Shown: positions 1,422-64,000 of the stretch, piece by piece | How positions within the stretch are numbered: position 1 is the stretch's first letter | How the letters are laid out: every line of letters starts with the position of its first letter | IMG/VR virus record: IMGVR_UViG_3300024262_003767 | Origin: a virus | Length of the DNA: 64,000 nt | Reading direction: 5' to 3' (one strand) | Program-made: the position numbers and the translations under genes | The notes under the pieces: model-generated | The model's database searches: none | The model's input: the letters and a program-made list of their open reading frames with translations, nothing else | What the model was told of the DNA's origin: nothing

Positions 1422-2321
1422 ATGATAAAAGAAAAAGAAATTGAAATATCTATAGGTTCTAGCAATTATTCACATTATGAAAAATACAAACCATATAAAA
1501 AGGGTGATAAAATTTTAGTTAAGATATATGACTTAATAGAAAATTCCACAGTTATCATTACCGCAATTTGTGATATTTGTAATAAAGAGAAGAAAATAAA
1601 ATATCAACCATACAACAATCAAATAAAAAAAAGCAATTTTTATTGTTGTTCTGAATGTAAAATGGTGAAAACTAGAGCTACAAATAAAAAAAAATATGGA
1701 TTTGATTATCCTATGCAAAGAGTGGAGGTTATGGTAAAGTCTAAAAATACATTATTAGAAAAATATGGAATAGAAAACATATCACAACGAGATGATATTA
1801 AACAAAAACGGAGTAAAATAATGTGTGATCCAAAATACCAAAAAAAACTTAAAAATGGGGTAATTAAAAAATATGGAGTCGATAATGCATCTTCTTTACA
1901 ATATGTTAAAGATAAAAAGAAAGAAACTACATTATCAAACTATGGTGTTGAGAATCCTTCTCAATCATCCGAAATTTTCATTAAGGCTCAAAAATCAGGA
2001 AAAAAAATTAAAGAGCATCACACAGGATTATTCTATAGAGGTACATATGAAAAAGATTTTTTAGACTTTTGTTATAAACATAAAGTACCTATCGAAAAGG
2101 GTAAAACACTTAAATATACACTAAATGGTAAAGAACGATATTATCATTCTGACTATTATATGAAAAATCTAAATTTAATAATTGAAATAAAATCAAATTA
2201 TTATTATGAGAAGTATAAAGAACAAAATATACAAAAAAAGATTTCTTCTATTAAAAATGGCTTTAACTACATTATTATTATTGATAAAGAATATGACGAA
2301 TTTTTAAGTAAATTTTCTTAA
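1422..2321 (+). CDS. Free-standing homing-endonuclease-like protein (zinc ribbon + KYG repeats + PD-(D/E)xK-like C-terminus)
   Basis: CDICNKE..CCSECK zinc ribbon, four KYG[FIV][DE]N..SQ repeats, C-terminal HSDYY..IIEIKS (D..E.K). Antisense to both neighbours; 3' end overlaps GH16 gene by 4 nt; TATATATA box at 1363. Confidence 0.5.
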   Translation: MIKEKEIEISIGSSNYSHYEKYKPYKKGDKILVKIYDLIENSTVIITAICDICNKEKKIKYQPYNNQIKKSNFYCCSECKMVKTRATNKKKYGFDYPMQRVEVMVKSKNTLLEKYGIENISQRDDIKQKRSKIMCDPKYQKKLKNGVIKKYGVDNASSLQYVKDKKKETTLSNYGVENPSQSSEIFIKAQKSGKKIKEHHTGLFYRGTYEKDFLDFCYKHKVPIEKGKTLKYTLNGKERYYHSDYYMKNLNLIIEIKSNYYYEKYKEQNIQKKISSIKNGFNYIIIIDKEYDEFLSKFS

Positions 2322-27361: not shown

Positions 27362-28216
27362 TTCACCTTCCCAAACAATTTTATATTCATATTTACCTGG
27401 TAGTAGTATAATTTCTCTTTGATTTGTATGGTAATATTGTGTTGGTAATTTCTGTACGTCAACTAGTACATCTTTAGGTTGTACTTCCATCATAATAACA
27501 AAAGGTGGTGATGATGGTTGTTCATCCACAAATCTTCTAGCCACTAATATATTTGTAGTCCAAGATGTCGACATATTGAAATCGGATATAACTTTTTCAC
27601 CAACTTTGTATGGTGGGGTTTTTTTTGAAAAATGTTTTATTTGAACTTCTTCAATACCTTTATAAATCTTTAAAGGTTTATCTGGTTTAAAAGGTTTTAA
27701 TTCGTCTATAATATCTTGTGTTAATTTTGATAATAACAAAGAGCCAGAACCTATATATGAATATAACCAATCATCAGTTTTTTCAGATAATTCAACATTT
27801 ATCCTTTCAGGTGTATGTTTATCATATTTAGTAAATCCTCCAATGTAACGAAAAGATATCACATCTCCATTTTTAATTCTTGCTAACCATTCACCTGTTA
27901 TTGAATGTTTATAAAAATAACCAGAATAATCATCAACATCAACTTCTTCATCTTCACTAAATCCAAAAAAATCTACAATTTGTTTATATAGAGGTTTTTT
28001 TGTTTTAATTTGATAGATATATTCACTATTTATATCAGATGCGTCTGCTCTATTTGTTAAATAGATTCTTTTTAAATGATTTAGATTACTAAAATCTATA
28101 TCTTCTAATTTTAATGGTTCATCAGAATATAAATATAAATTTCCATTATATGTTTTTTGATCGTAATCTACTTCATTATAATCTACAAGTTCAAATAATT
28201 TGAATTTAGTTATCAT
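27353..28216 (-). CDS. Candidate ADP-ribosyltransferase (C3/Vip2-like R-S-E class, variant K-STS-QxE) with unknown N-terminal domain
   Basis: KIYKG (aa 183-187), FNMSTSW (aa 213-219), TNQREIILLPGKYEYKI (aa 264-280; compare the C3 exoenzyme QxE ARTT loop as recalled, roughly Q.E.LLPR....Y.I). 11-nt overlap with the CCA-enzyme gene. Confidence 0.4.
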   Translation of the reverse strand: MITKFKLFELVDYNEVDYDQKTYNGNLYLYSDEPLKLEDIDFSNLNHLKRIYLTNRADASDINSEYIYQIKTKKPLYKQIVDFFGFSEDEEVDVDDYSGYFYKHSITGEWLARIKNGDVISFRYIGGFTKYDKHTPERINVELSEKTDDWLYSYIGSGSLLLSKLTQDIIDELKPFKPDKPLKIYKGIEEVQIKHFSKKTPPYKVGEKVISDFNMSTSWTTNILVARRFVDEQPSSPPFVIMMEVQPKDVLVDVQKLPTQYYHTNQREIILLPGKYEYKIVWEGELN

Positions 28217-29465
28217 TCATAAGATATTCATTTTTGAAACGCACAATCTCTCGTCTTTTCTTTTCTATTTCAATTTCAATTCCTTTGAAACCTTCAGCAG
28301 CTAAATCATTACCATTAACCACAAATCCATCATTACAATAATCAACAAATGGTTTATAGAATTCTTCACCCAAAAACTCATAAATTAAATCATCATCAAT
28401 ATGATATTGATTTTTCATTTTAGCCAAACCGTAAACATTTGAAACGTCAATGTTTTTAAATGATTTCCAATGTAAATCTAATTCCTTCTCAAGTTTGAGC
28501 AAAAATTCAATCTGGTTCACTAACTTGGAACTAAATTTCAATTCACTAATCATATATTTTCTCAATTTACGAATATCATTATCACGAAGTAAATGTGCAA
28601 ATAATATTGCGGAAATAGGTTTTGGTGTAAATCCATCGGGAGATATTTTCAATTTGGGAAACATTTGTTCCCACATATCATATTCAGTTAATAGTCTGAT
28701 ATAATTTTCTAATATTTTGTTTCCGCCTTTTTCTGCGTGTTCAATTACCTTATTCCATTCTTCATGTATTCTTTCTTGTGATACATCTTCTTTGGTACTT
28801 ATACCACGTAGTCTGTTATCACTTTTAATGGCTCTTGATGTCTCAGGTGATATGATACCACCTTTTCTACCTTGGGCTCTTGCAGCGAATCTAAATACTC
28901 TTAAAATTCTTAATCTATCTTCTTTAAATCTCTCAGCAGGATCACCAACAGCACGTATAACATTATTTTCAATATCTTTAACTCCACCAACCAAATCTAC
29001 AATTTCTTTTTTATTTATATCATAGAAAAGAGCATTGATAGTTAAATCTCTACGTTTAACATCATCTTCGATTGTAATATGGTTTCCAATTTCTACTTTA
29101 TCATCATCACCTTTTGTATCTCTACCTCCAGAAATATCTTTTCTAAAAGTTGCTAATTCGTGTCCGAGTGGTTCATCTTCAGTATAAATTCTAAGTACGC
29201 CAAAATTTTTACCTTGTTCATCAGAAACATTCCAACCTTTCAAAATTCTTTTACTTTCTTCTGGTAGAGCATTTGTGACTAAATCAAAATCATGTGGTAT
29301 CTTTTTTTGCAAAAAATCACGAACCGCTCCACCAACAACATAGATATCTTTACCAGCATTATTGAAGGCTCTTGATATTTCTTTAATGTCATAAGGAATA
29401 GGCATCTCAACAGAGATAGTATTTTCAGTTATAAATTCTAAATATTTTTTTAATTTTTCTACCAT
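28206..29465 (-). CDS. cca: tRNA nucleotidyltransferase (CCA-adding enzyme / poly(A) polymerase family)
   Basis: VVGGAVRDFLQKKIPHDFDLVT, RRDLTINALFYD, ERFKEDRLRILRVFRFAAR. Confidence 0.85.
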   Translation of the reverse strand: MVEKLKKYLEFITENTISVEMPIPYDIKEISRAFNNAGKDIYVVGGAVRDFLQKKIPHDFDLVTNALPEESKRILKGWNVSDEQGKNFGVLRIYTEDEPLGHELATFRKDISGGRDTKGDDDKVEIGNHITIEDDVKRRDLTINALFYDINKKEIVDLVGGVKDIENNVIRAVGDPAERFKEDRLRILRVFRFAARAQGRKGGIISPETSRAIKSDNRLRGISTKEDVSQERIHEEWNKVIEHAEKGGNKILENYIRLLTEYDMWEQMFPKLKISPDGFTPKPISAILFAHLLRDNDIRKLRKYMISELKFSSKLVNQIEFLLKLEKELDLHWKSFKNIDVSNVYGLAKMKNQYHIDDDLIYEFLGEEFYKPFVDYCNDGFVVNGNDLAAEGFKGIEIEIEKKRREIVRFKNEYLMNDN

Positions 29466-55265: not shown

Positions 55266-55721
55266 TTATAAATTATATTTATCCATTTGATCCATTTGAT
55301 CTTTCACATTCTTTCTCAAATCATCCAAATTTGTGAGTTGTTGTCTTGGATGACGAATTTTCAGTCTATCAGATATTGCATCCAATATAAAAGGTTCTAT
55401 ATCTTGATATCCTTTATTTTCTACCATATCACTAATATCTTTTGGTAACCAAATTTGATAATATTTAAGTTCACTATCAAAATTTCCTCTTGCTTGCAAT
55501 CCTTGTATATTAGACATTCCTTGACGGTCTTTATTAATTTTTATCATCTTTTCAATACCTAGAACTTTTTTAAATCTACCATCTTTTTCTTCAATAAATT
55601 CAGGTCTTGCCACAAAAGCAAATAAGTCATGTTCTTTACTATTTGGATTCATATCAAATAGTTCTTGAAATACTTTTAAATCTTCTTCACTATATCCTTC
55701 AAAATATTTTAAATGTTCCAT
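55266..55721 (-). CDS. Hypothetical protein
   Basis: ORF track; ends MDKYNL. Confidence 0.5.
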   Translation of the reverse strand: MEHLKYFEGYSEEDLKVFQELFDMNPNSKEHDLFAFVARPEFIEEKDGRFKKVLGIEKMIKINKDRQGMSNIQGLQARGNFDSELKYYQIWLPKDISDMVENKGYQDIEPFILDAISDRLKIRHPRQQLTNLDDLRKNVKDQMDQMDKYNL

Positions 55722-56407
55722 TATATTACGTTTATTTCATTAGCCATACAAACTTCACCATAATCTTTGATAAGTTTGTCCATATCATCAAATGAGATAT
55801 ATGCAAATCCTTTTTTACCCCATTCTCTACCCCAAGAATTTTTAATTCTTATTAGTTTCTTTTTAACATTAACACCATCTAATAAATATGCGTGTCCGCC
55901 CATTTTATTTCCTGTTGGAGTTATAATACCTTCACTATTTGGAAAAAACATATCATAGTACCACCAAGTACCAACAACAACAGGACCTAATGTTAATAAT
56001 GCGTTTACTGTTGTGTCAATATCCCAAGCCCAATTATATCCATTAATATACCCTGCAGATTGTAAAACTTTAGCACCAGCTCTAACACTAGTTCCATCAT
56101 AATCTTCACCAGGCCAACGATCTATCTTTTGTGCTTCATTATATAAATATTCTGTATCATAAGGTGCTACTCCACCTTTTCTACTTGCTTTTTGTGTTAT
56201 TGGACCAGAGGCTAACCAATGTATCCAACTAAATGCAACACAATGAGGTTTATAACCTTGATTTCCCCACCATCCATTTGTCCACCAATATTTATAATCT
56301 ATACCTGGTAATTTTTTAGGTAGCATTGAACTAATTAGGAATTGATGATCCCTATCATCAGGTTTTATAAATCTACCTAATCTTGATTTTAATTGATTTT
56401 CATTCAT
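55721..56407 (-). CDS. Papain-like cysteine peptidase (C1 family)
   Basis: Catalytic-Cys context QGYKPHCVAFSW, His GGHAYLLDG, Asn/Trp IKNSWGREWGKKGFAYI. Confidence 0.7.
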   Translation of the reverse strand: MNENQLKSRLGRFIKPDDRDHQFLISSMLPKKLPGIDYKYWWTNGWWGNQGYKPHCVAFSWIHWLASGPITQKASRKGGVAPYDTEYLYNEAQKIDRWPGEDYDGTSVRAGAKVLQSAGYINGYNWAWDIDTTVNALLTLGPVVVGTWWYYDMFFPNSEGIITPTGNKMGGHAYLLDGVNVKKKLIRIKNSWGREWGKKGFAYISFDDMDKLIKDYGEVCMANEINVI

Positions 56408-56425: not shown

Positions 56426-56433
56426 TATATATT
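56426..56433 (-). promoter_or_regulatory. TATATATT box
   Basis: 18 nt upstream of the C1 peptidase ATG at 56407; overlaps the stop of the M16 gene. Confidence 0.4.
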
Positions 56434-57583
56434 AAAATTCAGAATTATAAATGGATTTGTAAAATTTACCCCAATTAAAATACTTATCCATTGTTTGAAA
56501 TATATCATCAAGAGTTATCTTATGAATAAGGTGTTCCATACTCCAACATTCAGGTTCAATATATTTATTGACATTTGCGTGTCTTAATATGTCGTTCTTT
56601 TTTAGTTTAACTAAAAAATTATCTTTAATAATATCAAATCTATCTTGTGTCAAATAAATTTCTTTATTACTTAATACTTTACCTATTTCTTCTTGCAAAT
56701 GCTCTACATTCTTATTTGAAGTCTCAGTTAAGATTGTAACAACTGAAGATGTATTATTTAATTTTTGGTTAATACATTGAACATAATATGCTAATCCTGA
56801 TTTTTCTCTAATTTCTTGATATAGTGGAGAATTTAATCCAGAACCTAACATACTACAAGTATAACTAATTAATGGAAAATCTTCAGTTGCAACATTTGAA
56901 ATATTTATAATTGATTGTTTATTTTTATATTCGTTAATTAACTCTAACGGCACTAAACCTTCGGGTATAATGATATCATCATTAGTTCTAATTCCAAATG
57001 TTTCCGTTTCGATAAATTTGAATGGGGTATTTATAATACTATCTCTAAAATCAACATTAAAATCAAAATCATTGTTTTTAGATACATTAATTATCATTGT
57101 AGGTTTCTTATAGAAAAGATTTAAATATTCTTTACAATCATCTAAAGTGAAATTTTCTATATCACACCTTAATCCTATTGGGTGATAATAACCAAACATT
57201 TTTCTATTTAAATTTAGAAAATGGTTATTCATCTGTTCATTAAATGAATCTTTATATTCTTCCAAAACAATTTTTTTCTCATTTTCTAATTCTTCTTCTG
57301 TTGGATCATAAGATAGAATCAATTCTAGAAATTCATATTTATATTTATTAACATATTCATCCAATCCATTCATATAAAAAACTACTTCTGTATTAGATGT
57401 ATATGCGTTCCAAGCGACACCATATCTTTGAAAATCATCTTGTAAATGTTCAAATGACTTACAAATTAAATGCTCACAGATATGGGAGGCTCCAAATGTT
57501 CCAACTTTTTCTACCATTGTAGATCCATCAAATATTATATAAAATGAGGATAATTCTATTTCACTTTTAATGTTTTTTATCAT
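56432..57583 (-). CDS. M16 (pitrilysin-family) zinc peptidase
   Basis: Inverted zinc motif HxxEH in GASHICEHLICKS; GVAWNAYTSNTEVVFY; EKKIVLEEY. Confidence 0.7.
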   Translation of the reverse strand: MIKNIKSEIELSSFYIIFDGSTMVEKVGTFGASHICEHLICKSFEHLQDDFQRYGVAWNAYTSNTEVVFYMNGLDEYVNKYKYEFLELILSYDPTEEELENEKKIVLEEYKDSFNEQMNNHFLNLNRKMFGYYHPIGLRCDIENFTLDDCKEYLNLFYKKPTMIINVSKNNDFDFNVDFRDSIINTPFKFIETETFGIRTNDDIIIPEGLVPLELINEYKNKQSIINISNVATEDFPLISYTCSMLGSGLNSPLYQEIREKSGLAYYVQCINQKLNNTSSVVTILTETSNKNVEHLQEEIGKVLSNKEIYLTQDRFDIIKDNFLVKLKKNDILRHANVNKYIEPECWSMEHLIHKITLDDIFQTMDKYFNWGKFYKSIYNSEF

Positions 57584-57879
57584 AATATTCTTTTTAATTT
57601 TATTTTACGAATTCTTTTTTCTATTTCTCTTAATTGTTTATCTGATATTTCACCTTTATCTATCTTACTTAAATATACATCAAATAGTGCTTCATCAGGT
57701 TCTTTACCTGTATATCCTAAAACACAATGTTTAAAGGCTTCTAATATTTCTTCACCATTTTCAACCTTTTTAATGTCACCATGATGATTATAATACACAT
57801 CCCCATTATTTCTAAATTCGAGTAATGGTTTATCTATTCCATTAATTGTGAATACTACTCCTGGAGTTAATCCTATCAC
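57580..57879 (-). CDS. Hypothetical protein
   Basis: ORF track; 4-nt overlaps on both sides; ends EKRIRKIKLKRIL. Confidence 0.5.
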   Translation of the reverse strand: MIGLTPGVVFTINGIDKPLLEFRNNGDVYYNHHGDIKKVENGEEILEAFKHCVLGYTGKEPDEALFDVYLSKIDKGEISDKQLREIEKRIRKIKLKRIL

Positions 57880-58097
57880 ATACCTAATATTTTTTTATAA
57901 TATTCTGATTGAATATTTTTTAATGAGCCATATAATTTATCTAAAAAATCTATTCTATCTTCAAGATTATCTATTTCTTCATCTGAACCATCTGTTATTT
58001 TTTCATCAAGTTCATCTCTAGTCTTTTTTACTTCTTCCATTAAATCTTCTAAACTAATATAAGGTTTCCCATCATCCCCACGCATTGTTTTTAACAT
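57876..58097 (-). CDS. Small acidic hypothetical protein
   Basis: ORF track. Confidence 0.45.
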   Translation of the reverse strand: MLKTMRGDDGKPYISLEDLMEEVKKTRDELDEKITDGSDEEIDNLEDRIDFLDKLYGSLKNIQSEYYKKILGM

Positions 58098-58111
58098 ATA
58101 TTCTATTATTT

Positions 58112-61100
58112 TTAAAAATCTGTTATCAAAGATGATATCAAATTATCATTTTTCTTAACAGTTATTAATCCATCATAATTTATTGGATGAACATGCTCAA
58201 TTATAATAATTTTATCAATTTTATTTTTTATTTCGTCTAATAGTTCAATAAATTCCATAACAGATTTTTCATATAATTTGCCCATAATCTCATCAAGAAT
58301 AATAAAATTAGGTCTTGATTTTACATTAATTTGTCTTAATGCAATTTTTAATGTTAATGCACAAAATGTTCTTTCTTTACCTGATGATTCGATTGCATTT
58401 TGTGAAACATCTAATCTATCATCCATACTTAATTTTAAAATTAAATCATCATTAAAGAATAATGTAAAATCAACATTAGTCAATAAGTCGTTCAATTCTT
58501 TATTTATTAGATGTATAGATTTTTTTAGAAGATAAGTAGGAATACCGTCTCTGGATATACATCTCTGGTACTCTTTCATTAGTTCTTCTTGCTTTTTTTG
58601 TTGAATAAATTTCTCAATTCGTGATTGAATATCTTCTATTGATTTTTCTAATAATGCTATTTCTTTTTTAATTTCAGATATTACTATATATTTTTCATCA
58701 ATATTACTTTTCAATTCTAAAATATACACATCTTTATCATCAATGTCTAATTGAGTTTGTTTATTTTCCTCAATTTGTGATTCATACATTTTAAAATTAT
58801 TAATAGTTTGTTCTATTTCTTTAATCTTCAAAAGATAATTATCAATATTTAATGTTAGTTTTTCTTTTAAATTGACTTTATCTTTTCTTAGTTCGTAATT
58901 TTCTTTAATTTTTTCTTCATGTTGAATATCATCTTCAATAGATTCAATATTTAATGATTTTAACTCGTTTTCAAGATTTTTAATTACCGATAAATTGTCA
59001 TTTTTATCTTTATCTAATTTTTTCAATAACATTTTACCTTTATCAAATTTATTTTTTAATTCTTCATTAATTGATAAATCATTATTTTTTAATCTTTCAA
59101 TTAACGATTCAATCATTAATATTTCATTCTCAAGATATTTAGTATCTTGAAGAACGTTTAATTCTGATAATATTTCTTCGTCATATTCACCACTTGTTAA
59201 TTTATCTCGTTTTAATCTGAGAGTCTGAATTTTTTCCTCTAATTCGGGTATAATAGGTGTTAAATCTTTATATTCCTCAATTAAATCCTTTATTTTAATA
59301 GTATTAATTTCTATATCATGTTCTAATGTTTTAATCTTTTCTTGAATGTGTTCTAAATGATCGGGTGTAGATTCGTCATAATCTCTACCACATGCAGGAC
59401 AAAAACTTGAATTTTTAAATTCTTCAATTTCTTGAAGTTTCTCATCATTTCGTGATTTTAAATTTGAACCATCTTTTTTCAGATTTCTAATTTTATTTTC
59501 GAGATTAATTTTTTCAAGTTCATTCTTCTTTATCTCATCTTTAATTGATATTATTTTTGAGTTTATTATACTCAATTTTTCACTTTCAACATTAGAAATT
59601 TCTTTTTCTTTAATGTTAATTTTGTCTTTTAAATTATTAATTTCTTTATCTCTAAACTCTCTAAGTTTTTGTTTTACTTTATCAACCTTCGTATCAATTT
59701 CATTATTATTTGTTTTAACTGATGATATTTCTTCTTTTATTTTTGAAATTTTATCATTAGTTAATTTTAATTTATCTTTTAAATTGTTAAGTTTATCTGG
59801 CTCAAATTTAGAAGGTAATTCATTTATATCTCTATCATAGATACTTATTTGTACTTTATTATCATCAATCTTTTGATTATAATTTGATAATGTATTATTT
59901 GAAATATTCAGATCAAAATTGATCATCGATTCATCAATTTTATTTAATTTTTTAATTAAATTATCTCTTAAAGAATTTTCACTATCCAATTCTAATTTAA
60001 AATCTATAATCAATTTCTTTTGTTCTTTTATCGTATTTTTCTTCTCTTCTATTACATTTACGATTTCAGAAATCTCTTGCTCTGATTGACTAACATCAAC
60101 TATAATTTTTTCAATGTTGAGATCTTTTTTATAATCTTTATATTCATTTTGTTTCTTTTCAAAAATATCATAACCAGCATCTCTAATGATGCTATCCATA
60201 AACACACTTCTATCAGCAGATAAAAGTTCATTCAAATTATCTGCATTAGTTAATGATATTCTAACAAAATCTTTAAAATCACCAAGAATAAGATCTAATT
60301 TCTTTTGAGTTTGAGTTTTTCTTTCACCAGTTTGTTTATTCTTTTCTTTTATTTCTTCAGTATCATAATAGTCCACATTGGTAGAACAAGATTTTATTTC
60401 TCCACTTCTATTTTCATCTCGTTCAGTTTTTCTCAAAATTGTAATTTTTTCACCATCAATATCTAAAACAGCGCCACCTGAACATTTATTTAATTTTCGT
60501 TTATTGTTAATATATCTATTATCACCGTGTTTTTCTCTTTTTACGGTAGTTGTGGTTGTACCATAAAGAATATATGTTATAACATCTAAAATAGTAGTTT
60601 TTCCTTGTTGGTTTTCACCATGAATTTGTATGATACCATTTAAATCTTTCCAATCAATTTTATTTTTATCACCAAAAACTCTAAAATTATCAAACCAAAA
60701 TTTTTCAATTTTCCACTCAATGTTAGTTTTTTGTTCTTTAATCTCTAATCTATCATTAATTAAATCATCAATTTTTAAAATTTCATCAATATCATTTTTT
60801 TTATATCCTTGTTCTTCAAGATATTCTTTAAATATTTTACGTTGAGTTTCAACATTTGTTAAATCTAATGTTTCAGATAACATTTTAGATGAAACCATAT
60901 CTGTATAAATGTATGTTTTATCAAATTTTACTTTGGTTGAATCATATTTATTTTTAATAAAGTTTCGTATTTTTCTTTCATTTTCAGTATTGATGTTGGA
61001 ACTTAAATCTTTCCAATGCACTTTAAATTCAGGAAAATTTCCAATTCTTTCATTTGTGTGTAATGTCAAATTATCATAATCTTCACCTTCATTGATATAT

Positions 61101-61279
61101 AAATTGATAAATGTATATTCATTAAGAATATCTATTTCTTCAACTCTAAAGTCAGTTTTACTTTTTATATCCCAAACCAAAAATCCATGTTTATCAACAT
61201 CTTCACCAAATGATTGTTGAACTGGACTACCAGGGTAACCAATAGTTGGTATTTTTTTCTTTATTTTTATTTTAGACAT
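58112..61279 (-). CDS. Fusion protein: C-terminal fragment of Mre11/SbcD nuclease (aa 1-~187) + Rad50/SbcC SMC-like ATPase (aa ~188-1055)
   Basis: IGYPGSPVQQSFGEDVDKHGF (post-motif-V segment of SbcD); P-loop HGENQQGKTT at aa 220-229; CPACG zinc hook; very long coiled coils; Walker B FIILDEIMG. Confidence 0.85.
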   Translation of the reverse strand: MSKIKIKKKIPTIGYPGSPVQQSFGEDVDKHGFLVWDIKSKTDFRVEEIDILNEYTFINLYINEGEDYDNLTLHTNERIGNFPEFKVHWKDLSSNINTENERKIRNFIKNKYDSTKVKFDKTYIYTDMVSSKMLSETLDLTNVETQRKIFKEYLEEQGYKKNDIDEILKIDDLINDRLEIKEQKTNIEWKIEKFWFDNFRVFGDKNKIDWKDLNGIIQIHGENQQGKTTILDVITYILYGTTTTTVKREKHGDNRYINNKRKLNKCSGGAVLDIDGEKITILRKTERDENRSGEIKSCSTNVDYYDTEEIKEKNKQTGERKTQTQKKLDLILGDFKDFVRISLTNADNLNELLSADRSVFMDSIIRDAGYDIFEKKQNEYKDYKKDLNIEKIIVDVSQSEQEISEIVNVIEEKKNTIKEQKKLIIDFKLELDSENSLRDNLIKKLNKIDESMINFDLNISNNTLSNYNQKIDDNKVQISIYDRDINELPSKFEPDKLNNLKDKLKLTNDKISKIKEEISSVKTNNNEIDTKVDKVKQKLREFRDKEINNLKDKINIKEKEISNVESEKLSIINSKIISIKDEIKKNELEKINLENKIRNLKKDGSNLKSRNDEKLQEIEEFKNSSFCPACGRDYDESTPDHLEHIQEKIKTLEHDIEINTIKIKDLIEEYKDLTPIIPELEEKIQTLRLKRDKLTSGEYDEEILSELNVLQDTKYLENEILMIESLIERLKNNDLSINEELKNKFDKGKMLLKKLDKDKNDNLSVIKNLENELKSLNIESIEDDIQHEEKIKENYELRKDKVNLKEKLTLNIDNYLLKIKEIEQTINNFKMYESQIEENKQTQLDIDDKDVYILELKSNIDEKYIVISEIKKEIALLEKSIEDIQSRIEKFIQQKKQEELMKEYQRCISRDGIPTYLLKKSIHLINKELNDLLTNVDFTLFFNDDLILKLSMDDRLDVSQNAIESSGKERTFCALTLKIALRQINVKSRPNFIILDEIMGKLYEKSVMEFIELLDEIKNKIDKIIIIEHVHPINYDGLITVKKNDNLISSLITDF

Positions 61280-62148
61280 TTATTTAATTTTATTTTAAAT
61301 TCACCATTTAGAATATTGGTTTCCCAGAACCTTAAAATATTAAAATTATTAGATTTTGAAAGTTCATCTTTAAAAATATCATTTTCAATATTTAACATCT
61401 GAGTCTTATTTAATTCATTTATATTAAATATGTTGGGGTTAGCATGCCAATAATCACCATCTGCCTCAATAATTATATTTTTATCTATTAACATAAAATC
61501 ATATATTTTATATCTTAATTTACCATCAAGTTTATAGTATATTCTAAATTGTGGTTTATATTTTATTGATTTTTCATCTAAAAAATCACCTATAATTTTT
61601 TCTATTTTAGTTTTACTTTTTTTAAATAACCCTTTATGTGCGATTTCCGTCATACTTAAACCATATCTTTCAATGCAAGTATTATTAATTTTTTTTCTAC
61701 ATTCATCGTCTTTCCAATTATGTGTTGTACCATATCGTTCTAAGAACGTATTTTTTCTTTTTATTTTTGATTCAGGTTTCCATCCAAATGGAAATTCATT
61801 ATTTTGATTATATTCTAATTTAGATTTCCTAACTTTATTTTTATAATTTTCATCACTCCACAATTTTTTAGTTATTTTTGAATGTAAATCTTTACTTTCT
61901 TGTGTTTTTACCTTACCAAACATTGGATTTTTTTCACCAACATATATAATTTTTTTATGCTCATCACAACATTTCCTTGAGCAATATTTTTTATCATCAG
62001 ATACTAATACTTCAATATCAACTCCACAATTTATACAATAAATAATTTTTCTTTCAACCTTAGATTTCTTATAATCTTTATATTGACATTTCCTTGAACA
62101 ATATTTCTTATTATTATGTTTCTCACCACAAACTATACATTTTTTCAT
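61267..62148 (-). mobile_element. Free-standing homing-endonuclease-like gene inserted inside the mre11/sbcD coding region
   Basis: CIVCGE..CSRKC and CINCG..CSRKCC knuckles, NUMOD3-like GEKNPMFGK, ERYG repeats, Vsr/DUF559 core YDFMLID..IIIEADGDYWH; own TATATATA box at 62170. Confidence 0.65.
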
Positions 62149-62169
62149 AGATTTTTTGTTGTTTTATAG

Positions 62170-62177
62170 TATATATA
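62170..62177 (-). promoter_or_regulatory. TATATATA box
   Basis: 21 nt upstream of the endonuclease ATG at 62148, inside the split mre11 locus. Confidence 0.4.
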
Positions 62178-62191
62178 AAAATATAATACTA

Positions 62192-62848
62192 CTATTCTGA
62201 TAATATCCAACCATTTTTTAAATATTCATCTAAGTCTTTATCATCTATCTCCATTTCTACTTCTTTATATTTGAAAAACTGCCTTTTATGTATATCACCA
62301 AGAAAAAGAAAATCATTCTTTTTAAAATCATTAATACTCTTGTACATACTATCAGTAAAAAATTTACCTCTATCGGTAGAACTATTTTGTATAGGGTCAT
62401 GAAACAAACCTATATAAATTTGTTCTTTTTTCTTTGTTTGTCCAACCCAAGGATCATTTAATTTGTCAGGGTGATCATATACAACCCAAGATATATTACC
62501 TTCATCATAAATACCTGTTGTGTCATAATATGTCACATTAGGATTATCAATCAATTTAACTACAACCTTTATACTATCAGTTCTATTTAAATTTTTCTTA
62601 CGCAAATCGTGATTACCTCTTGTTATAATAACTTTGGCTATATGTGAAAGTTTGTTTAAAAATTCACCACCGAGTATTTTTGCTTCATTGGAAATTTCAA
62701 TAAAATTTTCAAATAAATCACCAACAATTACAATTTTTTCTGGTTGTCTTATTTTTAATTCGTTATATATTTTTTCAAATACTTCTCTATACTCATCATG
62801 TCTCTCTACATTTCTAATGTGTACATCTGCTAAATGTGCTATCTTCAT
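62192..62848 (-). CDS. N-terminal fragment of Mre11/SbcD nuclease (phosphoesterase motifs I-V)
   Basis: LADVHIR (I), IVGDLFE (II), TRGNHD (III), GLFHD (IV), LGDIHKRQ (V), then a 26-aa non-conserved tail and stop. Confidence 0.8.
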   Translation of the reverse strand: MKIAHLADVHIRNVERHDEYREVFEKIYNELKIRQPEKIVIVGDLFENFIEISNEAKILGGEFLNKLSHIAKVIITRGNHDLRKKNLNRTDSIKVVVKLIDNPNVTYYDTTGIYDEGNISWVVYDHPDKLNDPWVGQTKKKEQIYIGLFHDPIQNSSTDRGKFFTDSMYKSINDFKKNDFLFLGDIHKRQFFKYKEVEMEIDDKDLDEYLKNGWILSE

Positions 62849-62936
62849 TCAACTTCTTATTTTTTATTTAGAATAAATCTAATTATTATATGTTATACCC
62901 TTGAAATAGTTTAATGAAAAATAAATTATGAATTTT

Positions 62937-62944
62937 TATATATA
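62937..62944 (+). promoter_or_regulatory. TATATATA box
   Basis: 23 nt upstream of the deoC ATG at 62968. Confidence 0.4.
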
Positions 62945-62967
62945 AAAGAAAATTAATCATTAGTCAC

Positions 62968-63768
62968 ATGAAAAATATTACAAGTAGAGAAAAATTTCTA
63001 AAAAAAGTATATGAATATAGTCAAGGAATCCAAGATTATATAGGTTTAGTAGATTATACTATGTTAGGTTTAGATGCCACGGAAGGAGATATACTAGGTT
63101 TGTGTAAAAGAGCAAAAGAATATGGAGTCGCAACTGTTTGCGTTAGACCTAATATGGTATCTTTAGCAAAAAGAGAACTCGATGGTTCAGATGTTGGAGT
63201 TACAACAGTTATATCGTTCCCTGAAGGTACAAATTCTAAAGAAGCAAAATTATTTGAATGTAAGAAAGCGATTTCTGATGGTGCTGATGATATTGATATG
63301 GTTTTAAATTATCAAAAACTTAAAGAAGTATGGAATAAAATTGGTTCCGCTGATGAAGATGAACGTGAAGAGGAAATGTTTGATGTTATCTATTATGAAT
63401 TGGTTGATGAAGTTAAAGCATTAGTGGATATGTGTCATAATGCTAGTAAAATTTTAAAAGTTATTGTTGAATCTGGTAAATTAAATTCTGAACAAACAAA
63501 ATTTGTTACAGAGATATGTATAGAAGCAGGAGCAGATTTTATTAAAACATCAACTGGTATGGTAGATATTGGTGCGGAATTAGATAAAATTAAAATTTTC
63601 TATGATACAATTAAAGAAAAAGGTTCAGATATGTTAATTAAAGCATCAGGTGGAATTAGAACAATTGAAGATATTAAAAAATTCGCACCATACACAGATA
63701 GATTTGGTGTTGGTTCGGGTTCTATTGATAATATGATGGGTGTTAGTTCGGGTAGTTCATCATACTAA
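62968..63768 (+). CDS. deoC: Deoxyribose-phosphate aldolase
   Basis: TVCVRPNMV, VISFPEG, DIDMVLNY, LKVIVESG, DFIKTSTGM (Schiff-base Lys), IKASGGIRT. Confidence 0.88.
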   Translation: MKNITSREKFLKKVYEYSQGIQDYIGLVDYTMLGLDATEGDILGLCKRAKEYGVATVCVRPNMVSLAKRELDGSDVGVTTVISFPEGTNSKEAKLFECKKAISDGADDIDMVLNYQKLKEVWNKIGSADEDEREEEMFDVIYYELVDEVKALVDMCHNASKILKVIVESGKLNSEQTKFVTEICIEAGADFIKTSTGMVDIGAELDKIKIFYDTIKEKGSDMLIKASGGIRTIEDIKKFAPYTDRFGVGSGSIDNMMGVSSGSSSY

Positions 63769-63780
63769 ATGAAATTCTAA

Positions 63781-63828
63781 ATACAAATAAAAAAACCAAT
63801 CATTTTTGATTGGTTTTTTTATTTGTAT
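63781..63828. terminator. Terminator, 22-bp perfect palindrome
   Basis: atacaaataaaaaaaccaatca tttt tgattggtttttttatttgtat. Confidence 0.75.
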
Positions 63829-63868
63829 TTTTTTATTACTTTTGTGACATTATTATAAAATTTTTAAT

Positions 63869-64000
63869 ATGTCATATCATAATAAATTATCAGAAGTCAC
63901 ACACAAATTAAATACTCTTAAAATTAGGGTTACTATTTTATCGGTTTTTACCATATTGATATGGTTATTTAATGTTAGTTTATCAACATCTATTTTACTA
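63869..64000 (+). CDS. Hypothetical membrane protein, 5' fragment (runs off the right edge)
   Basis: Own translation: MSYHNKLSEVTHKLNTLKIRVTILSVFTILIWLFNVSLSTSILL... Confidence 0.3.
   Translation, partial: MSYHNKLSEVTHKLNTLKIRVTILSVFTILIWLFNVSLSTSILL

Follow-up and report, generated by a model that had tools for sequence, protein, structure and literature searches.

Organization of the split locus

The stretch of viral DNA studied here, 64,000 nucleotides (nt) of the IMG/VR record IMGVR_UViG_3300024262_003767 and hereafter called the window, carries a gene for the Mre11/SbcD nuclease that is interrupted by a free-standing endonuclease gene and whose second part runs into a gene for the Rad50/SbcC ATPase. 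The locus consists of three open reading frames (ORFs), all on the minus strand, which encode an N-terminal piece of Mre11 (N-piece, 218 amino acids (aa)), a putative homing endonuclease (293 aa) and a C-terminal piece of Mre11 fused to Rad50 (C-piece, 1055 aa). Their coordinates (Table 1) match those in the first-pass annotation of this DNA, in which such a split was proposed, and the three ORFs on the minus strand confirm the interruption by a free-standing endonuclease gene. The endonuclease and C-piece ORFs overlap by 13 nt, at the end of the former and the start of the latter. Both pieces match PHROG 35725, a fused "metallo-phosphoesterase" profile of 1376 columns, in consecutive regions. 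Since all three genes are present in two independent assemblies (ENA ERZ27249621 and JGI 3300009149), with identical N-piece and endonuclease genes, an assembly artefact can be ruled out. As developed below, we propose that a single-chain Mre11-Rad50 was split by a mobile cassette within its nuclease fold, and that the two products may reassemble with the help of an acidic tail and a basic head brought by the insert.

The break lies inside the nuclease fold

The N-piece contains the phosphoesterase motifs I to V (D8/H10, D44, N79/H80, H150 and G184-D-I-H187). In family alignments that include split N-pieces, D8, H10, D44, N79, H80 and H150 do not vary, and H187 varies little if at all. In an HMMER alignment of an intact homolog to SbcD (7dog) and to the Mre11 of Thermotoga maritima (4o24), the break falls about 6 residues past motif V (GDIH) and ahead of the core strand that comes next (YPGS..FGE), which bears out the position first proposed. 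The comparison with relatives lacking the endonuclease gene leads to the same point: they are uninterrupted at the site, and the residues aligned with N-piece aa ~193-197 are directly contiguous with those aligned with C-piece aa ~12.

According to both the HMMER alignment and AlphaFold2, the N-piece by itself lacks the strands that follow motif V; its core is kept in the model of the N-piece alone, with a predicted local distance difference test score (pLDDT) above 90 for aa 1-190. When both pieces of the window are joined end to end, AlphaFold2 returns a confident Mre11 fold (pLDDT 86.6), whose top Foldseek matches are the Mre11/SbcD chains 3qg5, 7dog and 6s6v (E down to 2e-14). The joined model resembles full-length Mre11/SbcD structures, including the capping domain and the C-terminal helices, and the complete nuclease plus capping-domain fold is reached only with both ORFs joined. 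This match indicates that C-piece aa ~12-187 are, by structure prediction, the rest of Mre11 and not a part of Rad50, as had been suspected, and that the break falls inside the catalytic phosphoesterase fold. No intron or intein being detectable, the nuclease would have to reassemble from two polypeptides, in agreement with the initial proposal.

A single-chain Mre11-Rad50 is the ordinary state of the family

The C-piece contains all the landmarks of a complete Rad50: a Walker A motif (GENQQGKT, 221-228), a long coiled coil with a CxxC zinc hook (CPAC, 627-630), the SGKE signature (966), a Walker B motif (FIILDE, 992-997) and an H-loop (EH) near aa 1029. The first-pass annotation was thus right about the completeness of Rad50, its P-loop position being one residue off.

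An exhaustive search with C-piece aa 1-230 gave 1142 relatives, and classes were counted in the best 150 cluster representatives. The nuclease N-part is in the same chain in 113 of these 150, and 101 of the 113 have at least 1000 aa. Long proteins beginning at the break account for 25 of the 150 (about one in six), and short ones beginning there for another 10. Among phage genomes searched by tblastn, the 735-kb uncultured phage LR756501.1 encodes a single ORF of 1202 aa that is ~46% identical to both pieces and continuous over the break. Microcystis phage Mel-JY01 (WWT39521.1) and Tenacibaculum phage pT24 (gp019, 1310 aa) have single-chain proteins too. In the closest relatives (51-66% identity), namely protein P0003, the contig of locus L010 and protein P0118, the site is uninterrupted; the target sequence of the L010/P0003 type lies around GDIHKRQFFRKNKSAAYCGS.

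The dominance of same-chain proteins among the best representatives implies that the fusion of the Mre11 C-terminal part with Rad50 is the family's ordinary state and not an outcome of the split, of which it had initially been considered a part. Judging from these sequence comparisons, the Rad50 fusion is ancestral, most relatives being uninterrupted single chains of ~1030-1310 aa, and many jumbo and huge phages, forming a large group, normally have Mre11-Rad50 as a single chain. No paper on such a fusion came up in a literature search. Only 3 matches were obtained when a word-indexed search was run with the beginning of the C-piece, and a scan of viral contigs with the single N-piece query gave none.

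The closest relative, L010 (7287-11023; NCBI GCA_043658615.1, JBIGLD010000905.1), is ~65% identical and syntenic with the window for the DeoC and M16 peptidase genes. It has no endonuclease at the site, and the Mre11-Rad50 gene is annotated there in five fragments (135, 122, 375, 477 and 106 aa), probably as a result of frameshift errors in the assembly.

A putative Vsr-like homing endonuclease in a mobile cassette

The 293-aa protein matches Pfam NUMOD3 and DUF7487 and PHROG families annotated as HNH and homing endonucleases. As a single sequence it falls below the cut-off for DUF559/Vsr (18.6 versus 20.6 bits), and a phmmer search with it against the Protein Data Bank (PDB) gave nothing useful. 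Vsr and I-Bth0305I were reached by the family profile only: of the 220 homologs found, 37 were used to build a profile that matches the DUF559 protein 3hrl (1.7e-5), Escherichia coli Vsr 1cw0 (2.9e-4) and I-Bth0305I 3r3p (1.1e-3). Residues E228, D230, D232 and H235 are nearly invariant among the homologs. On the strength of the profile matches, we regard the 293-aa product as a Vsr-like homing endonuclease of the I-Bth0305I type. Elsewhere in the window, a 299-aa ORF (1422-2321, plus strand) matches DUF7487 (5.7e-25) and weakly resembles the central part of the endonuclease (tblastn E 0.001); this could be a further gene for an endonuclease-related or DNA-binding protein.

When IMG/VR was scanned with the endonuclease profile, 80 loci were returned. 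All 13 full-length matches lie directly downstream of an Mre11 N-piece, and so do the shorter matches L030 and L032. Wherever the sequence is available, the endonuclease relatives also sit upstream of a matching C-piece, and the order N-piece, endonuclease, C-piece is found again in L002, L011 and L012. With at least 20 loci occupied at the same Mre11 site, the endonuclease appears to be site-specific as a family.

Two pairs of relatives reveal what is inserted. L006 and L004 are 100% identical over 1893 nt, after which L006 diverges, exactly at the break behind the GDIHKRQTFNH codons, into tail, spacer and endonuclease. In L011, compared with L001, a 1070-nt insert replaces 32 nt between flanks that are 88-89% identical. 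The cassette defined by these pairs contains the tail codons, a stop codon, a spacer, the endonuclease gene and the head codons. Such pairs point to recent gain or loss of the cassette in relatives, and hence to mobility of the family rather than of the window copy itself.

The spacer upstream of the endonuclease gene forms its 5' untranslated region (5'UTR). The "TATATATA box" noticed earlier is a part of the 5'UTR motif TTTTTATATATAC[AT]ATAAAACAACAAA, which is common to related cassettes. In relatives, a hairpin UUUUGUUG...CAACAAAA encloses a TA-rich loop, with z-scores of -2.5 to -3.2 in L011, L012 and L006, whose 5'UTRs are 64-73 nt long versus 43 nt in the window; the window spacer does not fold better than shuffled sequences (z -0.87).

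Other arrangements occur at this site. In L007 (7001-11332; JGI 3300050711, 172-kb contig), the site is occupied by a 287-aa LAGLIDADG gene (LAGLIDADG_3, 6.9e-10), flanked by a 198-aa N-piece without a long tail and by a 922-aa C-piece starting with MNNKKILGAYPSS. The locus L004 (7001-12510; ENA ERZ19026178, 267-kb contig), from the same phage group as L018-L021 and L032, is broken further even without an endonuclease: a 270-aa nuclease is followed by ORFs of 87, 87, 196, 338 and 96 aa and then by a 745-aa Rad50. Where the cassette is inserted in this group, the head and the YPSS..FGE strands form a separate mini-ORF of ~75 aa.

The acidic tail and the basic head

The N-piece was first described as ending in a tail with no family resemblance. 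This does not hold, as the tail is a conserved peptide borne by the insert and paired with a conserved basic head on the C-piece. Tail (25 aa) and head (11 aa) are conserved at the protein level in at least 15 of the fetched loci. Examples are KEVELEIDEEDLDKYLKDGW with MAKIKIKKKIP in L011 and KTIEMEIDENELDEYIKKGW with MTKIKIKKDI in L012, and similar pairs are present in L002, L015-L022, L030 and L032. They can be recognised across loci whose Mre11 parts are only 30-40% identical, and their codons differ synonymously between loci while the amino acids are kept. Both peptides are absent from intact relatives and are encoded by the insert, as seen in the L004/L006 and L001/L011 pairs.

Charges and lengths of the two peptides go together. 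In the window, the tail has a net charge of -5 (counted with the two preceding native Phe), and the first 13 residues of the C-piece have +5. A long acidic tail (net -1 to -10) is combined with a long head (+1 in L002, +3 to +7 elsewhere) in 15 loci, and a short tail is paired with a short head in 5 others. Among 33 cluster representatives starting at the break, ~21 have a basic head. The catalytic motifs are intact in the split versions. In L009 the endonuclease gene has been lost, and the tail, a stop codon, 8 nt and the head-bearing C-piece remain; with so little space between the ORFs, RNA splicing is excluded there and the two-polypeptide state appears to be viable. L008 is split and likewise without an endonuclease gene.

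In the joined AlphaFold2 model, the tail forms strands at 194-200 and 215-218 and a helix at 203-211, and the head forms a strand at 223-229, with pLDDT values of 74-83. In the model of the N-piece alone, the tail loses its strands and its pLDDT falls to 55-71. These predictions fit a small joint module built from both polypeptides.

One possible origin of the tail, as a diverged copy of the native segment displaced by the insertion (YPSSLIQQNFGE..KHGFLLW), was considered and rejected: 21% of ungapped shuffles score as high, and in a gapped test the score is below the shuffle mean (9.9 versus 11.2).

Genomic context

The window (G+C ~24%) comes from an AT-rich huge or jumbo phage. A large phage is indicated by nearby genes for a ClpB-like ATPase, a tRNA nucleotidyltransferase and a virion protein. 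The gene content around the locus, with genes for a DeoC-family aldolase, M16 and C1 peptidases, the ClpB-like protein and the tRNA nucleotidyltransferase (Table 1), is typical of huge phages.

Table 1. Coordinates of the split mre11-rad50 locus and of neighbouring genes in the window.
Feature	Position	Strand	Evidence or remarks
N-piece ORF, 218 aa	62192..62848	(-)	Pfam Metallophos aa 1-188, E 6.5e-14; PHROG SbcD-like families
Native part of N-piece, aa 1-193, Mre11/SbcD phosphoesterase core	62270..62848	(-)	Metallophos E 6.5e-14
Acidic tail, aa 194-218, YKEVEMEIDDKDLDEYLKNGWILSE, and stop codon	62192..62269	(-)	Insert-borne; absent from intact homologs
5'UTR spacer of the endonuclease gene, 43 nt	62149..62191	(-)	TA-rich motif and hairpin 3' arm AAAACAACAAAAA
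Free-standing putative homing-endonuclease gene, 293 aa	61267..62148	(-)	Two zinc knuckles, NUMOD3, DUF7487 region, C-terminal Vsr-like/I-Bth0305I-like nuclease domain
C-piece ORF, 1055 aa	58112..61279	(-)	Pfam AAA_23 from aa 197; phrog_77 SbcC 1.3e-34
Start codon and basic head of C-piece, MSKIKIKKKIP (11 aa)	61247..61279	(-)	Insert-borne
Predicted remainder of Mre11, C-piece aa 12-187	60719..61246	(-)	Final nuclease-domain strands (IGYPGSPVQQSFGE..KHGFLVWD), capping domain, C-terminal helices
Rad50/SbcC part, C-piece aa 188-1055, and stop codon	58112..60718	(-)	AAA_23, phrog_77, motif positions
DeoC-family aldolase	62968-63768	(+)	Neighbour gene
M16 (insulinase-like) peptidase	56432-57583	(-)	Neighbour gene
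Papain-like C1 peptidase	55721-56407	(-)	Neighbour gene
ClpB-like ATP-dependent protease ATPase	46956-49472	(-)	phrog_4871, 2.6e-260
tRNA nucleotidyltransferase	28206-29465	(-)	Neighbour gene

A model for the split nuclease and alternative explanations

We propose the following scenario. In this phage clade, the Mre11 nuclease and the Rad50 ATPase are normally joined in one polypeptide of ~1030-1310 aa. Into such a gene, a mobile cassette of ~1 kb has inserted ~6 codons past phosphoesterase motif V, bringing, in this order, 25 acidic-tail codons and a stop, a short regulatory spacer, the Vsr-like endonuclease gene, and a start codon with ~11 basic-head codons. Three proteins would then be produced: the N-piece with all metal-binding motifs, the endonuclease, and the C-piece, which runs from the final nuclease strands through the capping domain and the linker helices to Rad50. 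The two pieces would associate again without a covalent link to give an active nuclease-ATPase. The tail (strand-helix-strand) and head (strand), being of opposite charge, could dock on each other and thereby aid or stabilise this reassembly, and the endonuclease may spread the cassette by cutting intact alleles during co-infection. We consider this account as a whole, from the ancestral single chain through the split caused by the cassette to a non-covalent reassembly helped by tail and head, to be probable. That the matching acidic and basic ends help the two halves to reassemble is probable, as suggested by the structure prediction and by analogy with the split NrdA discussed below.

Some observations weigh against this account. 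The AlphaFold2 "complex" is one covalently joined chain, in which the proximity of tail and head is imposed by construction. There are also cassette variants with almost no tail or head (L024/L008, L025-27 and, with the LAGLIDADG gene, L007), and their existence means that the nuclease can evidently tolerate the break without long docking peptides, to judge from the gene sequences. Finally, the window spacer keeps the TA-rich motif and the 3' arm of the hairpin and lacks the 5' arm; translational control of the window copy of the endonuclease may be altered.

The short variants would also suit the idea that tail and head are passive baggage that supplies only a stop and a start, the fragments reassembling through their native beta-sandwich interface. 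Five loci are indeed split at the same site with tails of 4-9 aa, short heads and intact motifs, and in Aeh1 NrdA the tails are dispensable for heterodimer formation of the two fragments (PMC3045599). However, mere baggage would hardly be expected to keep its amino acids with synonymous codons among hosts whose Mre11 parts are ~30-40% identical, nor to be retained in L009 after the loss of the endonuclease. Moreover, long tails are always found with long heads of complementary charge, and the tail is predicted by AlphaFold2 to be ordered only when the C-piece is present. We therefore see the passive role as somewhat unlikely, and prefer docking peptides that assist reassembly.

A more far-reaching version of such docking can be imagined, in which tail and head are a portable two-peptide module, carried along with the endonuclease and required for rebuilding the nuclease fold. 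This module may be the vestige of an atypical split intein with a short N-fragment (~25-29 aa), which has lost splicing and kept association. An intein-vestige origin of the tail is possible: when the tail is compared with the N-intein of ~29 aa that relatives have in the Rad50 P-loop, 6% of shuffles score as high ungapped and 1.6% (16/1000) gapped, the comparison having been picked post hoc. Taken as a whole, this version is speculative and unlikely. If true, it would connect split inteins with "genes in pieces" that need no splicing, and provide a natural glue for split proteins.

The atypically split intein in the Rad50 P-loop occurs in L008 (7687-10910; Logan SRR22334943) and in the proteins P0271, P0309 and P0369. 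The middle piece ends with ...GK-CVDPNTKIDIEFNENDIIKKLGFLPKELL*, corresponding to the ~29-aa N-intein, and the next ORF begins with a C-intein of ~125 aa that ends with ...GIVSHN-STIMKL and has a weak match to Pfam Intein_splicing (1.8e-4). With such an intein, Mre11-Rad50 would be made as three pieces in those phages.

It could also be envisaged that the split inactivates the nuclease, the 218-aa ORF being a decaying remnant next to a Rad50 ORF that works alone or not at all. The removal of core strands from the catalytic domain by the break would favour this idea. It is nevertheless improbable, as the metal-ligand motifs are all invariant in split N-pieces, both ORFs are open in at least 20 fetched loci, long proteins starting at the break make up 25 of the 150 best representatives, relics without the endonuclease persist, and identical copies occur in two samples.

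Vsr-like endonucleases are known in group I introns, e.g. I-Bth0305I in recA, and the insert might be a group I or II intron carrying an endonuclease ORF, whose splicing would restore a contiguous Mre11-Rad50 mRNA. We rejected this very improbable explanation because an Rfam search of 57500-64000 at E<=1 gave no intron family, one chance sRNA match being the only result, and because the ~150 nt of the insert outside the endonuclease ORF leave too little space. Against it also stand the tail and head, which appear to be translated and under protein-level selection, and the 8 nt between the two ORFs of L009.

Lastly, tail and head as halves of a working split intein that ligates the pieces by trans-splicing, as in a classical "fractured gene", would agree with the usual location of this endonuclease family between split-intein halves (PMC2677866) and with the weak post hoc likeness given above (16/1000 shuffles as high), but this reading is very remote, and we rejected it for its length and missing catalytic residues: the ~36 aa of tail and head are far short of a HINT fold, the K193|Y194 junction has no Cys, Ser or Thr nucleophile, the head has no His-Asn, the Thr that follows the head comes without the required upstream catalytic elements, a Pfam scan of the locus proteins found no intein match, and the SbcD locus of Dassa et al. 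2009 was also scored as intein-less (PMC2677866).

Comparison with known systems

With T4 gp47/gp46 and bacterial SbcD/SbcC, the proteins of the window share the catalytic motifs, the capping domain, the ABC ATPase and the CxxC zinc hook. Those systems consist of two complete, separate subunits, whereas here an ancestral single chain has been cut inside the nuclease domain. A selfish endonuclease may thus interrupt the catalytic fold of an enzyme without destroying it, the enzyme presumably surviving because a stop, a start and peptide ends that match are all supplied by the insert. Homing endonucleases would in this way be a route to gene fission.

I-Bth0305I is encoded by an intron in recA (Taylor et al. 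2011, PMC3239194). The window endonuclease resembles it by its Vsr-like C-terminal catalytic domain and contains a NUMOD3-type DNA-binding module. It differs in being free-standing, in having two N-terminal zinc knuckles and a DUF7487 region, and in targeting Mre11.

The first-pass annotation knew of no description of a split Mre11 together with an Mre11C-Rad50 fusion, but an SbcD-like gene fractured by a Vsr-like endonuclease had been reported from Lake Gatun, as one "fractured gene" without an intein (Dassa et al. 2009, NAR 37:2560, PMC2677866). In that locus, 25 extra C-terminal and 9 extra N-terminal residues are absent from SbcD proteins, the 3' end of the endonuclease gene overlaps the downstream ORF, and a hairpin and a late-promoter-like 5'UTR precede the endonuclease (PMC2677866). 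By its published description, it has the same arrangement as the window. The main class of Dassa et al. has N- and C-intein halves around the endonuclease; the window locus is without intein halves and fits their intein-less SbcD-like variant. Their report rested on one short metagenomic fragment. The Rad50 fusion was not noted there, and neither was it mentioned that tail and head are conserved and paired, that presence/absence pairs and endonuclease-less relics exist, or that other endonuclease families use the site. Already known were thus this SbcD-like split (2009) and the essential, insert-borne charged tails of Aeh1 NrdA (2011). What is added here is the Rad50 fusion, the scale, tails and heads that are conserved in sequence and occur together, the presence/absence pairs, the relics without endonuclease, and a LAGLIDADG gene at the same site. 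The split of SbcD/Mre11, once a single metagenomic fragment of 2009, is now seen to be widespread.

The closest parallel to the proposed reassembly is found in phage Aeh1, whose nrdA-a and nrdA-b genes are split by mobE, as reportedly described by Friedrich in 2007. Oppositely charged tails borne by mobE are essential for the split NrdA, and similar tails were predicted on other fragmented genes (Crona et al. 2011, PMC3045599). In both systems, the fold of an essential enzyme is interrupted by a free-standing endonuclease gene, tails of opposite charge borne by the insert are unique to the split version, and neither RNA nor protein splicing is invoked. The host gene is different, encoding ribonucleotide reductase (RNR) in Aeh1, and so is the endonuclease, which is of the HNH family there. 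The charge polarity is reversed, with a basic C-terminal and an acidic N-terminal tail in Aeh1 versus an acidic tail and a basic head in the window. Dependence on the tails was shown for Aeh1, whereas it is proposed for the window locus. Finally, the Aeh1 split stands alone, whereas the tail and head described here have kept their sequences in many lineages, and natural controls are at hand in the empty alleles, the endonuclease-less relics and the short-tail variants. The split Mre11 may thus be a good system for the idea of Crona and Edgell that charged tails borne by the insert neutralise gene fragmentation.

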